Source: Shigella phage vB_SsoM_113. From it: a stretch of 64,000 nt of DNA. Below are positions 2,724 through 64,000 of this stretch, piece by piece; position 1 is the stretch's first letter, and each line of letters opens with the position of its first letter. The notes below the pieces were generated by a model. It was not told the DNA's origin and ran no database searches. It saw nothing but the letters and a program-made list of their open reading frames with translations. The DNA lies in sequence record LR746311, one strand, 5' to 3'. The translations under genes and the position numbers were made by a program.

Positions 2724-2927
2724 ATGAAATCATATAGAGTAAATTTAGAACTTTTTGATAAAGCAGTTCATCGAGAATATAGAATCATTCAACGCTTTTT
2801 CGATATGGGAGAAGCCGAAGAGTTTAAAAACCGCTTTAAGGATATTAGAGATAAAATTCAATCCGACACTGCAACTAAAGATGAACTACTAGAAGTTGCT
2901 GAAGTTATTAAACGTAATATGAATTAA
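2724..2927 (+). CDS. rIIA.1-like small protein
   Basis: 67-aa ORF immediately upstream of rIIA, same position and size as T4 rIIA.1. Confidence 0.5.
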
Positions 2928-2937
2928 TGAGGAAATT

Positions 2938-5115
2938 ATGATTATCACCACTGAAAAAGAAACAATTCTTGGTAATGGTTCTAAATCAAAAGCATTTAGC
3001 ATCACAGCATCTCCTAAAGTATTTAAAATTCTGTCATCTGATTTGTATACAAACAAGATTCGCGCAGTAGTCCGTGAATTGATTACCAACATGATTGATG
3101 CCCATGCTCTCAATGGAAATCCTGAAAAATTTATCATTCAAGTTCCAGGACGATTAGATCCGCGATTTGTTTGTCGAGATTTTGGTCCGGGTATGAGCGA
3201 TTTTGATATTCAAGGTGATGATAATTCTCCTGGGTTGTATAATTCATACTTTAGTTCATCTAAGGCTGAATCTAACGATTTCATTGGCGGATTTGGTTTA
3301 GGTTCTAAATCTCCGTTTAGTTATACTGATACATTTAGTATTACTTCATATCATAAAGGCGAAATTCGTGGTTATGTAGCTTACATGGATGGTGATGGTC
3401 CGCAGATTAAACCTACATTCGTAAAAGAAATGGGTCCAGATGATAAAACTGGTATTGAAATCGTAGTTCCAGTTGAAGAAAAAGACTTTAGAAACTTTGC
3501 TTATGAAGTTTCTTATATCATGCGACCATTCAAAGATTTAGCTATCATTAATGGTCTTGACCGCGAAATTGATTATTTTCCAGATTTTGATGACTATTAC
3601 GGCGTAAATCCAGAAAGATACTGGCCAGATCGTGGTGGATTGTATGCTATCTATGGTGGTATTGTTTATCCTATCGATGGTGTTATTAGAGACCGTAACT
3701 GGTTAAGCATCCGCAATGAAGTGAATTACATTAAGTTTCCAATGGGTTCACTTGATATTGCTCCATCACGCGAAGCTCTTTCATTGGATGATCGTACTCG
3801 TAAAAATATTATTGAGCGTGTTAAAGAGCTTAGTGAGAAGGCATTCAATGAAGATGTAAAACGATTTAAAGAATCTACATCTCCTCGTCATACATACCGT
3901 GAATTGATGAAGATGGGATATTCTGCTCGAGATTATATGATTAGTAATTCAGTCAAATTTACGACTAAAAATCTGTCATATAAGAAGATGCAAAGCATGT
4001 TTGAACCCGACAGTAAGTTATGCAATGCAGGAGTTGTGTATGAAGTAAATCTTGACCCTCGACTGAAACGCATTAAGCAAAGTCATGAAACTTCGGCCGT
4101 TGCATCAAGTTATCGTCTATTTGGTATTAATACAACAAAAATTAATATTGTTATTGATAATATTAAAAATCGTGTTAATATTGTCCGTGGATTAGCACAT
4201 GCATTAGATGATAGTGAATTTAATAACACTTTGAATATTCATCACAATGAGCGTCTTCTGTTTATTAATCCGGAAGTAGAATCGCAGATTGATTTACTCC
4301 CTGATATTATGGCAATGTTTGAAAGTGATGAAGTTAACATTCATTATTTGTCAGAAATTGAAGCTTTAGTTAAAAGTTATATTCCGAAGGTAGTTAAAAG
4401 TAAAGCTCCTCGTCCTAAAGCTGCTACTGCATTTAAGTTTGAAATTAAAGACGGACGCTGGGAAAAAGAGGAACTGTTTACACTCACATCAGAAGCAGAT
4501 GAAATTACTGGTTATGTAGCATATATGCATCGTTCTGATATTTTCTCTATGGATGGTACTACATCGCTTTGTCATCCATCTACGAGTATTTTGACTCGTA
4601 TGGCTAATCTTATTGGCATTAATGAATTTTATGTTATTCGTCCGCTTTTGCAGAAAAAGGTAAAAGAACTTGGTCAGTGCCAATGTATTTTTGAAACTCT
4701 GCGTGATTTATATGTAGATGCTTTTGATGATGTAGATTATGATAAGTATGTAGGTTATTCAAGTTCAGCTCAGCGATATATTGATAAAATTATTAAGTAT
4801 CCTGAACTCGATTTTATGATGAAATATTTTAGTACAGATGAAGTTTCCGAAGAATATACACGACTCGGTAATATGGTTAGTTCATTGCGGGGGATATATT
4901 TCAACGGTGGAAAAGATACCATCGGTCATGACATCTGGACAGTAACTAATCTTTTTGATGTATTATCAAATAATGCTTCAAAAAACAGTGATAAAATGGT
5001 TGCTGAGTTTACCAAGAAATTCCGTATTGTTTCCGACTTCATCGGTTATCGCAACTCTTTAAGTGATGATGAAGTTTCCCAAATCGCTAAAACTATGAAG
5101 GCCCTTGCGGCCTAA
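2938..5115 (+). CDS. rIIA: rIIA protein
   Basis: 725 aa (same as T4 rIIA), GHKL-like N-terminal region, followed by rIIB. Confidence 0.9.
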
Positions 5116-5126
5116 TAAGGAAAATT

Positions 5127-6065
5127 ATGTACAATATTAAATGCCTGACCAAAAACGAACAAGCTGAAATCGTCAAACTGTATTCAAGCGGTAATTATAC
5201 CCAGCAGGAATTGGCTGATTGGCAAGGTGTATCGGTTGACACAATCCGTCGTGTTTTGAAAAATGCTGAAGAAGCTGAGCGCTCCAAAGTTATTATTAGC
5301 GGTGATATTACAGTTAAAGTTAATAGCGATGCAGTTATTGCTCCAGTTGCTAAATCTGACATTATTTGGAATGCATCTAAAAAATTCATTTCAATTACTG
5401 TTGACGGTGTAACTTATAACGCAACTCCTAATACTCATTCAAACTTCCAGGAAATTCTTAATCTGCTTGTTGCAGATAAATTGGAAGAAGCGGCGCAAAA
5501 AATTAACGTTCGTCGCGCTGTTGAAAAATATATTTCCGGTGATGTTCGAATTGAAGGTGGAAGCTTGTTCTATCAAAATATTGAATTGCGATCTGGTCTG
5601 GTTGATCGTATTCTCTATTCGATGGAAAAAGGCGAAAACTTTGAATTTTATTTTCCGTTCTTGGAAAATCTGTTGGAAAACCCGAGCCAAAAAGCGGTAT
5701 CTCGACTCTTTGATTTCTTGGTAGCAAACGATATTGAAATTACAGAAGATGGCTACTTCTATGCTTGGAAAGTAGTTCGCAGCAATTACTTTGACTGTCA
5801 TTCAAATACTTTTGATAACAGTCCTGGTAAAGTAGTTAAAATGCCACGTACTCGTGTGAATGACGATGATACACAAACTTGTTCTCGTGGTCTGCATGTG
5901 TGTTCTAAATCTTATATTCGTCACTTTGGTAGTTCAACCAGTCGAGTTGTAAAAGTTAAAGTGCATCCGCGTGATGTAGTATCAATTCCGATTGATTACA
6001 ACGATGCTAAAATGCGTACCTGCCAATACGAAGTAGTTGAAGACGTTACTGAACAATTTAAATAA
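5127..6065 (+). CDS. rIIB: rIIB protein
   Basis: 312 aa (same as T4 rIIB), directly downstream of rIIA. Confidence 0.9.
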   Translation: MYNIKCLTKNEQAEIVKLYSSGNYTQQELADWQGVSVDTIRRVLKNAEEAERSKVIISGDITVKVNSDAVIAPVAKSDIIWNASKKFISITVDGVTYNATPNTHSNFQEILNLLVADKLEEAAQKINVRRAVEKYISGDVRIEGGSLFYQNIELRSGLVDRILYSMEKGENFEFYFPFLENLLENPSQKAVSRLFDFLVANDIEITEDGYFYAWKVVRSNYFDCHSNTFDNSPGKVVKMPRTRVNDDDTQTCSRGLHVCSKSYIRHFGSSTSRVVKVKVHPRDVVSIPIDYNDAKMRTCQYEVVEDVTEQFK

Positions 6066-61748: not shown

Positions 61749-61972
61749 TGAAATATAGCATTGATGATGCTTTTAATTATGAAGAAGAATTCGAAACGGA
61801 AATTCAATTCTTAATGAAAAAGTATAATCTCAAGCGTCAGGATATTCGTATCCTGGCCGACCACCCATGCGGTGAAGATGTACTTTATGTTAAAGGAAAA
61901 TTTGCCGGATATCTTGATGAATATTTTTATTCTAAAGATATGGGCATTGATATGCATATGAGAGTTATATAA
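61748..61972 (+). CDS. hypothetical protein (uvsY.-1 position)
   Basis: 74 aa, ATGA overlap with uvsY. Confidence 0.45.
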   Translation: MKYSIDDAFNYEEEFETEIQFLMKKYNLKRQDIRILADHPCGEDVLYVKGKFAGYLDEYFYSKDMGIDMHMRVI

Positions 61973-62000
61973 ATAGATATATAATTTAGAGGAGACAATC

Positions 62001-62168
62001 ATGTCAGATAAGATTTGTGTTGTCTGTAAAACTCCAATCGATTCTGCATTGGTTGTTGAAACAGACAAAGGTCCTGTACATCCTGGGCCTTGTTATAATT
62101 ACATTAAAGAACTACCAGTTTCAGAAAGTTCGGAAGAACAATTAAATGAAACACAACTTTTGCTATAG
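62001..62168 (+). CDS. small Cys-containing protein (uvsY.-2 position)
   Basis: 55 aa with GGAGA RBS; CVVC...HPGPC suggests a zinc ribbon. Confidence 0.4.
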   Translation: MSDKICVVCKTPIDSALVVETDKGPVHPGPCYNYIKELPVSESSEEQLNETQLLL

Positions 62169-62191
62169 TGTGACCTTTAGTCTATAGTTTT

Positions 62192-62220
62192 GGCCCTTCC
62201 TTTTTGGTTGGGCCTTTTTT
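62192..62220. terminator. bidirectional terminator between convergent units
   Basis: ggccc...gggcc inverted repeat followed by tttttt, between + and - strand genes. Confidence 0.45.
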
Positions 62221-62223
62221 AAT

Positions 62224-62466
62224 TTAAAAGCTTTCTTCTACTTCATCGTCTGAATCTTCTAATTCAGCTCTTTTTCCTGCCAAAGCATCTCTCACAGAGA
62301 TGTCATCAGTATCTTTTAATTCAGTTTCTTTAACTCTTTTCTTGTAATAAGCTTCAAGTTCTTCTAGACCTTCTATCGTTTGACAAGAGGCAATTTTACC
62401 CATAAATTCATCAATAGAAGCTTCATAAAGAAATTGTTTAAATTCTAGTAACATCTTTTTCTCCAA
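62224..62466 (-). CDS. UvsW.1-like small acidic protein
   Basis: 80-aa ORF in the position where T4 uvsW.1 follows uvsW. Confidence 0.5.
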   Translation of the reverse strand: MEKKMLLEFKQFLYEASIDEFMGKIASCQTIEGLEELEAYYKKRVKETELKDTDDISVRDALAGKRAELEDSDDEVEESF

Positions 62467-62479
62467 AGGGCCGAAGCCC

Positions 62480-63172
62480 TTATAAATTAACTGTTTTTCT
62501 AAGTATTCTTAGTTTGTACATTGATAATCCAGTAGCTTTAGAAGCATCTTTCATACATTTATACTTAACACCATTTACTTCTATAGGTTTAGCAGCTGGG
62601 TTATTAGCTCCTGAATTATCTGGCATGTTATCTTTAATTTTCTGAATAGATTTAGCGGAATGCTTCCTTCCATACATGCCGTTATTTTTACCCGATTGAT
62701 TGATTGAATGTAATCTTTTAGCTTCTTCAGTCCATTTCGTTGGGTTCATTCTTTTAGTTTTACTAATTTTATTTCCCCATGTAATTGGACGGCTTTTCAT
62801 GAGTTTTGACATATATTGTTTATGTTCTTCCGTATGATGTTTTCCGTAAAATGGATTACCTTCGCCGGATTGAAGTTCTGCCATTTTACGACGTTCCCAT
62901 GCGTAAGATTTATTGACGTGTCTTTCATGAGTATTTGAATTCATTCCCATACATATAACGGCTTTAATTATACCGTAATGATTTGGATGAATTTTAGCTA
63001 AAAGTTTATGGGCTATAAAATGTTCTTCAGCCGTTAGTTCTACTAAATTACACTTATCATCTGTACCACCCATACATCTAGGAATTATATGATGAGTTTC
63101 AGTGTATCCATTAAGGCGAGCCCGATTCTGGGCTCTATTAATTAAATTATCATATATTAATTTATAATTCAA
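62480..63172 (-). CDS. HNH homing endonuclease with NUMOD3 repeats
   Basis: 230 aa; HNH core ETHHIIPRCMGGTDDKCNLVELTAEEHFIAH; three NUMOD3-like repeats (GEGNPFYGKHHTEEHK, GKNNGMYGRKHSAKS, DNSGANNPAAKPIEVNG); basic C-terminus. Confidence 0.75.
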   Translation of the reverse strand: MNYKLIYDNLINRAQNRARLNGYTETHHIIPRCMGGTDDKCNLVELTAEEHFIAHKLLAKIHPNHYGIIKAVICMGMNSNTHERHVNKSYAWERRKMAELQSGEGNPFYGKHHTEEHKQYMSKLMKSRPITWGNKISKTKRMNPTKWTEEAKRLHSINQSGKNNGMYGRKHSAKSIQKIKDNMPDNSGANNPAAKPIEVNGVKYKCMKDASKATGLSMYKLRILRKTVNL

Positions 63173-64000
63173 AGTTTAACCTCTTTCATCACATAATTAA
63201 ACTTTTCATCAGCATAACGCTGAATACGATCAAGTCCATGTTTTAAAAGATAGTTTAAATGCGAGTATTTTTTAGAAGATGTTTTTGATTTAGAAACTAC
63301 GCCCGCGTCATCTATAAGATCCCAGACCGTTGCGATTGTTTTAGAACCATGCTTACGTAATACGCGACCTATTGTTTGCAATACAATAATTTTAGATTTA
63401 ACACCGTGTGCTAAAACAACGTGATGCAGATTTTTAACTGAAATACCAGTAGAAAATACACCATAACTAGCTACTATAATTATTCCTTTACCGTTTTCAG
63501 CTAAGGTTTTCATTACATTGCGGGTTTCGGTATCAACTTCCCCTGATACGTAATAAACTTTATCGTATTCATTTTTAATTAAATCGAAAATAGCTTTACC
63601 GTGCGATACGTGTTTAAACATGACAAAAGCATTTTCATCTTTTTGCGCAAGCTTAATAGCTAATTTAGCGATCCATTTATTTCTTTTACTGAGCCCAGTA
63701 ATAATTTTTATTTCTTCTTGGTAAGTTTTTCCCTTTAATTTAGTAGTGAACTCATCGGGATAGCGAAGAAAAATACTATTAATTTTTAACTCAGTTACTT
63801 GTCCATCTTCCATTAATTTAGAGGTCGTTACTGGCTTAAATATTTCACCGAACATTCCAACATACTGCATGATATTAGCTTTGCCATCGCGCAATGAACC
63901 AGACAAACCAAATTTAAACATACAGTTATTTAAACCTGATATGATAGATGAAATACTTTTTCCTGTAGCAAGATGACATTCATCATTCATCATCATTCCA
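63169..64000 (-). CDS. uvsW: UvsW helicase, C-terminal part (partial; N-terminus beyond window end)
   Basis: Helicase C-terminal domain motifs; open frame runs to the window edge; convergent with uvsY as in T4. Confidence 0.8.
   Translation of the reverse strand, partial: GMMMNDECHLATGKSISSIISGLNNCMFKFGLSGSLRDGKANIMQYVGMFGEIFKPVTTSKLMEDGQVTELKINSIFLRYPDEFTTKLKGKTYQEEIKIITGLSKRNKWIAKLAIKLAQKDENAFVMFKHVSHGKAIFDLIKNEYDKVYYVSGEVDTETRNVMKTLAENGKGIIIVASYGVFSTGISVKNLHHVVLAHGVKSKIIVLQTIGRVLRKHGSKTIATVWDLIDDAGVVSKSKTSSKKYSHLNYLLKHGLDRIQRYADEKFNYVMKEVKL

Follow-up and report, generated by a model that had tools for sequence, protein, structure and literature searches.

Introduction

T4 MobE is a free-standing HNH homing endonuclease that is encoded between nrdA and nrdB and has nrdB as its target. 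The enzyme nicks one strand of nrdB and, in mixed infections, is passed on at high frequency (PMC2988022). A further T4 enzyme, the GIY-YIG free-standing endonuclease SegE, is encoded between inh and uvsW and targets uvsW (Table 1 of PMC2988022).

The modular phage homing endonucleases I-HmuI and I-TevI, which have known structures, are, unlike the free-standing gene described here, intron-encoded, and the I-TevI nuclease is of the GIY-YIG type. Bonocora et al. (PNAS, 2011) reportedly described an endonuclease cassette in a coding sequence, in which added sequence keeps the host gene working. In the T4 MobA/gene 60 bypass element and in Aeh1 mobE in nrdA, the endonuclease is likewise inserted in a host coding region, and both cassettes, like the one described here, bring additional sequence through which the host gene stays functional and the target is altered (PMC2988022).

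Here, we analysed a stretch of 64,000 nucleotides from Shigella phage vB_SsoM_113 (sequence record LR746311), hereafter the window, in which an earlier note had described a mobile HNH/NUMOD3 homing endonuclease gene next to uvsW. As to the kind of element this claim holds: some relatives have the ORF, and others lack it at the same site. We assign a probability of roughly 0.8 to the reading that it belongs to the free-standing homing endonuclease genes of the T4 Mob type and is located at one specific site, the last codons of uvsW. The gene is already annotated in GenBank and encodes an ordinary Mob-type endonuclease; a full-text literature search found no published description of it.

Results

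The cassette lies inside the 3′ end of uvsW and brings a replacement tail

The last 5 kb of the window carry, in the order known from T4, gp27, gp51, gp26, gp25, uvsY, uvsY.-1, and uvsY.-2, followed on the minus strand by uvsW.1 (62224..62454; 76 aa from the ATG of the T4-type annotation; Pfam UvsW-1, 7.3e-30), a 230-aa endonuclease ORF, and the 3′ part of uvsW (63169..64000, minus strand; helicase C-terminal domain, Pfam Helicase_C), which continues past the window end. The earlier note had placed the ORF at 62480..63172 without giving a strand; these coordinates are exact, and the strand is minus. The ORF begins with a TTG codon (63172-63170), has GAGG 7 nt upstream, and ends with TAA. The reported 4-nt overlap with uvsW was also borne out, with the TTG start and the uvsW stop TGA (63171-63169) together forming TTGA, so that the junction reads CTT-TGA as the end of uvsW and TTG-A as the start of the endonuclease gene.

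In RB14, NBG2, and five other carrier-free Tequatrovirus phages, uvsW and uvsW.1 are adjacent with a spacing of 25 nt, and T4 has the same junction sequence (in an unannotated record). The earlier description of an ORF wedged between two normally adjacent genes was thus right about their adjacency, but not about a placement strictly between them: alignment to empty-site alleles puts the insert not in the intergenic junction but within the uvsW reading frame, five codons ahead of the original stop. The segment missing from empty-site alleles in a MAFFT alignment measures 689 nt (62495..63183), with boundaries ambiguous by about 3 nt owing to an AAA common to both edges.

Empty alleles of uvsW end in AAT TAC GTA ATG AAA ACA GTT AAT TTA TAA (NYVMKTVNL-stop), and this stop is followed by the GGGCUUCGGCCC hairpin, a ribosome-binding site, and uvsW.1. 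In the window, uvsW instead ends in AAT TAT GTG ATG AAA GAG GTT AAA CTT TGA (NYVMKEVKL-stop). The new tail ATG AAA GAG GTT AAA CTT TGA (MKEVKL-stop; 63169..63189, minus strand) comes with the cassette; within it lie the Shine-Dalgarno sequence GAGG (63183-63180) and, overlapping its stop, the TTG codon at which the endonuclease gene starts. The original tail, AAA ACA GTT AAT TTA TAA (KTVNL-stop; 62480..62497, minus strand), is identical to that of empty-site alleles and now encodes the C-terminal five residues of the endonuclease together with its stop codon, so that the endonuclease ORF ends in AGA AAA ACA GTT AAT TTA TAA (RKTVNL-stop). Because the insert length of 689 nt equals 3n+2, the old tail is read in its original frame as the end of the endonuclease. 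Taken together, the new tail and the fate of the old one indicate that the cassette provides uvsW with a replacement tail that includes the ribosome-binding site and start of the endonuclease. Compared with each other, the old and the new tail agree at 12 of 21 bases and thus represent an imperfect direct repeat of 21 nt. Directly after the endonuclease stop lies a GGGC-UUCG-GCCC hairpin (62468..62479, minus strand), which is identical in empty-site alleles and part of the pre-existing spacer between uvsW and uvsW.1.

About 98 extra bases are present between uvsY.-1 and uvsY.-2 (window equivalent about 61973-62000) in NBG2 (1577-1699 of locus L004) and G2540-3 (1677-1799 of L091) and, judged by length, in BECP11, 11B_SA_NWU, and F26. 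They occur independently of the endonuclease gene.

The ORF encodes a Mob-type HNH protein with an I-TevI-like DNA-binding module

From its sequence, the product is of the T4 Mob type, an HNH nuclease followed by NUMOD3 repeats and an I-TevI-like DNA-binding module. The HNH core (63008..63094, minus strand; residues 27-55, HH...N...H...H) contains a complete motif, T-H27-H28-IIP...N42-L...H51...H55, in which H28, N42, H51, and H55 are invariant and H27 is nearly so in an alignment of 63 homologues. The motif also aligns to the HNH domain of group II introns. An AlphaFold model of the protein (mean pLDDT 89.3) folds residues 27-55 into two strands followed by a helix, and a match to PHROG 655 ('homing endonuclease') was obtained at 9e-61. 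The Pfam HNH model PF01844 scored 16.8 bits (E 0.0079), under its cut-off of 21.4; homologues in the database are mostly without a precomputed match to PF01844, and this model seems to be insensitive to the Mob subgroup of HNH proteins.

While the HNH core predicted by the earlier note is complete, the three NUMOD3 repeats that it counted were reduced to two stretches by Pfam scoring (E 7.6e-14; 62624..62893, minus strand; residues about 94-183), with further repeat-like units visible by eye. Residues 157-216 (62525..62704, minus strand) gave a weak Pfam match and aligned in sequence to the I-TevI DNA-binding domain (1i3j) with an E-value of 0.006. In a Foldseek search with the AlphaFold model, the same I-TevI domain came out on top (prob 1.0); structural matches to I-HmuI and I-TevI were under significance.

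BLASTP against T4 MobE gave an E-value of 1e-34 with 43% identity over 181 residues, the first 60 residues being near-identical. As in MobE, an N-terminal HNH domain is followed by NUMOD3-type repeats; the C-terminus after about residue 170 is, in contrast, unrelated to that of MobE and resembles the I-TevI DNA-binding domain. At the DNA level, 65 nt of the HNH core (63042-63106) are 92% identical to positions 1581-1645 of the T4 record X01804.1. The matching stretch belongs to 'orf D' of T4, which lies at the position of mobB, upstream of alpha-gt; over their whole length, the proteins are only 45% identical. Either gene conversion among mob nuclease domains or a strong constraint on them may account for the near-identity.

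The site is occupied in about one tenth of Tequatrovirus records

A 2.1-kb query around the ORF was matched best by Shigella phage ESh30 (98.5%) and by T6, PST, and ACG-C40 (about 97.8%), which identifies the window as a T6-like Tequatrovirus. Of the 817 matching records, 48 cover at least 80% of the query, and most other Tequatrovirus records cover 67%; as T4, RB14, and others do so in two pieces, the ORF is absent from them. Conversely, a 101-nt query made of the uninterrupted RB14 junction was found at full length in 450 records, of which 430 showed at least 99% identity, and at half length in carriers. tblastn retrieved 48 records with an endonuclease copy at 95% identity or above. The comparison among relatives that the earlier note had proposed therefore yields about 46-48 occupied and 450 empty sites, i.e., carriers make up roughly 10% of Tequatrovirus, and the numerous empty-site alleles show that the ORF is not present at this position in all relatives. 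Since a scan of IMG/VR gave two close relatives only, the population analysis is based on GenBank phage records.

The ORF is intact in 11/11 Tequatrovirus copies examined, with neither frameshifts nor internal stops. Mean dS among these copies is about 0.10 and dN/dS about 0.06, and 33 of the 41 segregating sites are at third codon positions, demonstrating that the gene is under strong purifying selection.

GenBank labels for the gene are inconsistent. The T6 record annotates it as 'homing endonuclease' and PST as 'mobD/MobE' between 'uvsW-A' and 'uvsW-B'; among the records of Metamorpho, Nispero, G2540-3, G8, ESh30, W143, and PST, the labels 'GIY-YIG homing endonuclease', 'group I intron endonuclease', and 'mobD' are found. 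In some records the TTG start is overlooked and the ORF is given as 197 aa, an annotation that would remove the HH of the HNH motif.

At the opposite end of uvsW, segE co-occurs with the endonuclease ORF in T6, PST, ACG-C40, ESh30, and G2540-3. Killian, W143, and BYEP01, though carriers, lack segE, and RB14 and HMD-9 have it without being carriers. The two genes assort independently. segE lies beyond the right end of the window, at 5281-5898 of locus L001 and 5280-5897 of L002 (PST); the T6 record labels it 'tail tape measure protein'.

Orthologues reside at the same site in other genera

All full-length homologues with at least 55% identity that were located occupy the same site. Their hosts are Jiaodavirus phages (Roth16 and others), Dhakavirus PSD2002, Gualtarvirus Rgz1, and two metagenomic T4-like contigs. 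In Jiaodavirus, 13 of about 145 records (at least 90% identity) are carriers, which corresponds to roughly 9%. The start of the endonuclease gene and the uvsW stop overlap as NTGA in 6/6 lineages (TTG in three, ATG in two, GTG in one), and the endonuclease stop overlaps the uvsW.1 start in four of the six. In Dhakavirus, the final 21 nt of the endonuclease ORF are the uvsW tail of the empty allele.

Endonuclease identity between lineages was always lower than UvsW identity and correlated with it (r = 0.61, from non-independent pairs), arguing for long residence and not for recent jumps; a recent cross-genus transfer was considered and is unsupported by these values. Nor does the locus agree with the earlier note's view of a recent insertion, given the dS among the 11 Tequatrovirus copies and the orthologues of 55-70% identity that three or more further genera have at this junction.

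The metagenomic Dhakavirus-like contig DRR827159 carries a second, unrelated homing endonuclease ORF between uvsY.-2 and uvsY (2897-3595 of locus L106; 232 aa; PHROG 314 at 5e-16), where PSD2002 has only a 34-aa ORF.

A tract of synonymous uvsW changes next to the insert marks a candidate target

For a detailed comparison of occupied and empty alleles, about 2.65 kb were aligned from 11 carriers and 7 non-carriers of Tequatrovirus. Fixed differences between the two groups were found at eight positions (63190, 63193, 63202, 63211, 63217, 63235, 63238, and 63256) and nowhere else in the alignment. All eight are synonymous changes at third codon positions, include the change of TAC GTA to TAT GTG, and are confined to the 70 nt of uvsW that adjoin the insert, forming a carrier-linked recoded tract (63190..63256, minus strand). 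In the proximal 76 nt of uvsW, divergence is 0.132 between groups and 0.004-0.011 within groups. In the next 740 nt (63261-63999), the respective values are 0.057 and 0.029-0.043, and in the 5′ half of uvsW as well as in the right flank (uvsW.1 to uvsY), divergence between groups is about equal to that within groups. Hence, carrier/non-carrier differentiation fades over about 800 nt and is absent elsewhere. Nearest neighbours in the right flank are mixed, carriers pairing with non-carriers. Intermixing of carrier and non-carrier flanks begins directly at the insert on the right and about 800 nt away from it on the left, so that the element occurs on many backgrounds. OES_C-3, a phage without the endonuclease gene, shares the haplotype of the carriers further upstream, with the switch located between 63256 and about 63262.

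A haplotype of eight changes beside the insert is what homing with co-conversion or target-site immunity predicts, and 63190..63256 is a candidate region for recognition, cleavage, and immunity. The target likely lies in the uvsW codons just upstream of the insertion point. Alternatively, the tract could reflect plain hitch-hiking of donor sequence and not functional immunity. In Jiaodavirus, carriers and non-carriers show six fixed synonymous differences, all within 32 nt of the insert. Across three genera, empty alleles read ...TTTAAYTACGTAATGAAA..., whereas carriers have TATGTG, TATGTT, or TATGTC, so that TACGTA is present in the empty alleles of all three and destroyed in carriers. The region around TACGTA is therefore a candidate target, a suggestion weakened by the fact that Tyr has two codons: a two-fold degenerate codon can change to just one synonym, which partly dictates the recurrence of TAT in carriers.

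Klebsiella phage vB_KpnM_GF (MK421971.1) is a carrier-free Jiaodavirus with a carrier-type uvsW haplotype upstream. At about 1540-1600 of its record (window equivalent about 63169-63205), exactly in the 35-nt candidate target, it combines a premature TAA with a deletion and an insertion of 1 nt each and with other substitutions; these changes truncate uvsW and lengthen uvsW.1. This cluster could be a scar of endonuclease loss, an allele that escapes cleavage, or a sequencing error in what is recorded as a 'partial genome'.

The endonuclease is probably translated from the uvsW transcript

uvsW is a late gene. The late-promoter consensus TATAAATA was not found on the coding strand near the endonuclease gene, and sigma-70-like matches near the gene were not above shuffle expectation. 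In T6, the sole late-promoter consensus on the coding strand lies upstream of segE. A conserved bidirectional terminator follows uvsW.1 (PMC1524935). With no late promoter of its own and a terminator after uvsW.1, the gene is probably read from the uvsW transcript and translated by weak, coupled re-initiation, and we infer low-level, late production by translational coupling to uvsW. The same mode of expression has been proposed for mobE, which resembles the present gene in being a promoter-less cassette with a start that overlaps the stop of the upstream gene, an arrangement that suggests translational coupling (PMC2988022); the start codon is TTG here, unlike the ATG of MobE.

An RNA hairpin masking the ribosome-binding site, as in Aeh1 mobE or I-TevI, was considered and rejected, as the fold of 63130-63270 gave z = -1.87 and paired the bases near the start only weakly, through A-U pairs. 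Codons 13-18 of the endonuclease ORF contain a G+C-rich inverted repeat, GAGCCCGATTCTGGGCTC (63118-63135). It was the sole terminator-like match in the scan, on the antisense strand, with no U-run following it on the coding strand, and recalls the weak terminator inside the 5′ end of T4 mobE (PMC2988022).

Discussion

A promoter-less cassette that is polymorphic among close relatives and tightly linked to a short tract of synonymous uvsW changes suggests the following course of events. In a mixed infection, the endonuclease would bind the genome of a carrier-free phage at the intact 3′ end of uvsW, around ...AAATTTAAYTACGTAATGAAAAC..., and nick or cut this empty site. Recombinational repair from the carrier genome would then copy in the cassette together with adjacent uvsW bases. 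The carrier's own genome would be immune owing to a site split by the insert and to recoded codons in the flank (TACGTA to TATGTN).

Among described systems, T4 MobE is like this gene in being present or absent among T-even phages. It differs in site and, by inference, in target, which is the uvsW 3′ end here and not nrdB, and whereas MobE is intergenic, the present endonuclease ORF lies inside a host ORF and brings a replacement tail. From the MobA and Aeh1 mobE cassettes it is set apart in that only the last five host codons are displaced and replaced, with neither a domain split nor translational bypass. SegE has the same host gene as target, but belongs to a different nuclease family and lies at the opposite end of uvsW.

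Once fixed, endonucleases that are purely selfish tend to decay, so the low dN/dS and the integrity of all 11 copies could also point to a domesticated or fixed former homing endonuclease, immobile, vertically inherited, and kept for a benefit to the phage, e.g., damage to the DNA of co-infecting competitors (marker exclusion) or some role with UvsW. That the gene has long resided at one site in four or more genera, that its divergence roughly tracks UvsW, and that its translation is tightly coupled to uvsW in all six lineages would be in line with such a role. However, the gene is far from fixed, being found in about 10% of records in two genera, and at this frequency continued homing can itself maintain selection for activity. 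Moreover, the mixed flanks of carriers and non-carriers place the element on many backgrounds. Given its frequency and these flanks, a domesticated, non-mobile gene is less likely than a mobile one, and we regard it as improbable; as competitor exclusion and homing are the same biochemical act, it differs from a homing endonuclease gene more in emphasis than in mechanism. An inactive remnant of an old invasion might be read from the TTG start, the lack of an own promoter, and two records that annotate only the shorter 197-aa ORF. Yet those annotations simply overlook the TTG start, and a non-ATG start within the NTGA overlap is conserved across lineages and looks like regulation rather than decay. 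Such a decaying relic is very unlikely and was rejected on the presence of all catalytic residues, the absence of frameshifts and internal stops, and the dN/dS.

The record of Klebsiella phage Metamorpho joins uvsW and uvsW.1 around the ORF as if spliced, and LIMEstone1, among other phages, has been reported to carry an intron in uvsW (PMC3296691), as would be the case if the ORF lay inside a group I intron or intein interrupting a single uvsW+uvsW.1 gene. Against this, a permissive Rfam scan of 61900-64000 revealed no intron family but only a chance miRNA match, carrier-free phages have their own uvsW stop and their own uvsW.1 ATG at the same positions, and uvsW and uvsW.1 are separate ORFs in T4 and five T4-like genomes analysed (PMC1524935). 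The ORF starts at a codon of its own and is read in another frame than uvsW, which is incompatible with an intein. With frames and stops incompatible and no intron family found, interruption by an intron or intein is hardly credible and was rejected; having its own start and stop, the gene is free-standing.

A more far-reaching version of the homing endonuclease reading is that the mobile unit is an 'endonuclease plus recoded host-gene tail' cassette, in which the replacement uvsW tail gives the ribosome-binding site, the start, and self-immunity, and which has resided at the uvsW/uvsW.1 boundary since before the Straboviridae genera diverged; in its strongest form, an ancestor of the cassette would have created the uvsW/uvsW.1 split. 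We consider this an outside chance. A word-index search for fused UvsW+UvsW.1 gave only proteins of about 75 aa, and none of the 36 matches in an exhaustive profile search of 1.84 billion representatives was a helicase with a C-terminal UvsW.1 domain, which leaves the strongest form without positive support. A clear N-terminal UvsW.1 domain was observed in proteins of about 260-300 aa from the profile search (P0213, P0214, P0216-P0220, P0222, P0223, and P0225-P0227; Pfam 1e-17 to 1e-23 in the four scanned), indicating that the UvsW.1 module is also fused to non-helicase sequence. The C-terminal part of these proteins is uncharacterised and gave one weak cytidylyltransferase-like match.

In practical terms, several GenBank records mislabel the gene, miss its TTG start, or, in one record, draw uvsW and uvsW.1 as a joined helicase CDS. 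The ORF adds a sixth Mob-type site to the catalogue of T-even homing endonucleases, none of T4's own five mob genes being located at the uvsW site. Its neat cassette structure comes with a testable predicted target: comparing carriers and non-carriers in three genera points to a putative uvsW target of roughly 25-35 bp centred on TACGTA and names the exact substitutions that would be expected to confer resistance. Bracketed by two unrelated, independently assorting endonuclease genes, uvsW lends itself to studies of the influence that such elements have on recombination and marker exclusion between T-even phages.
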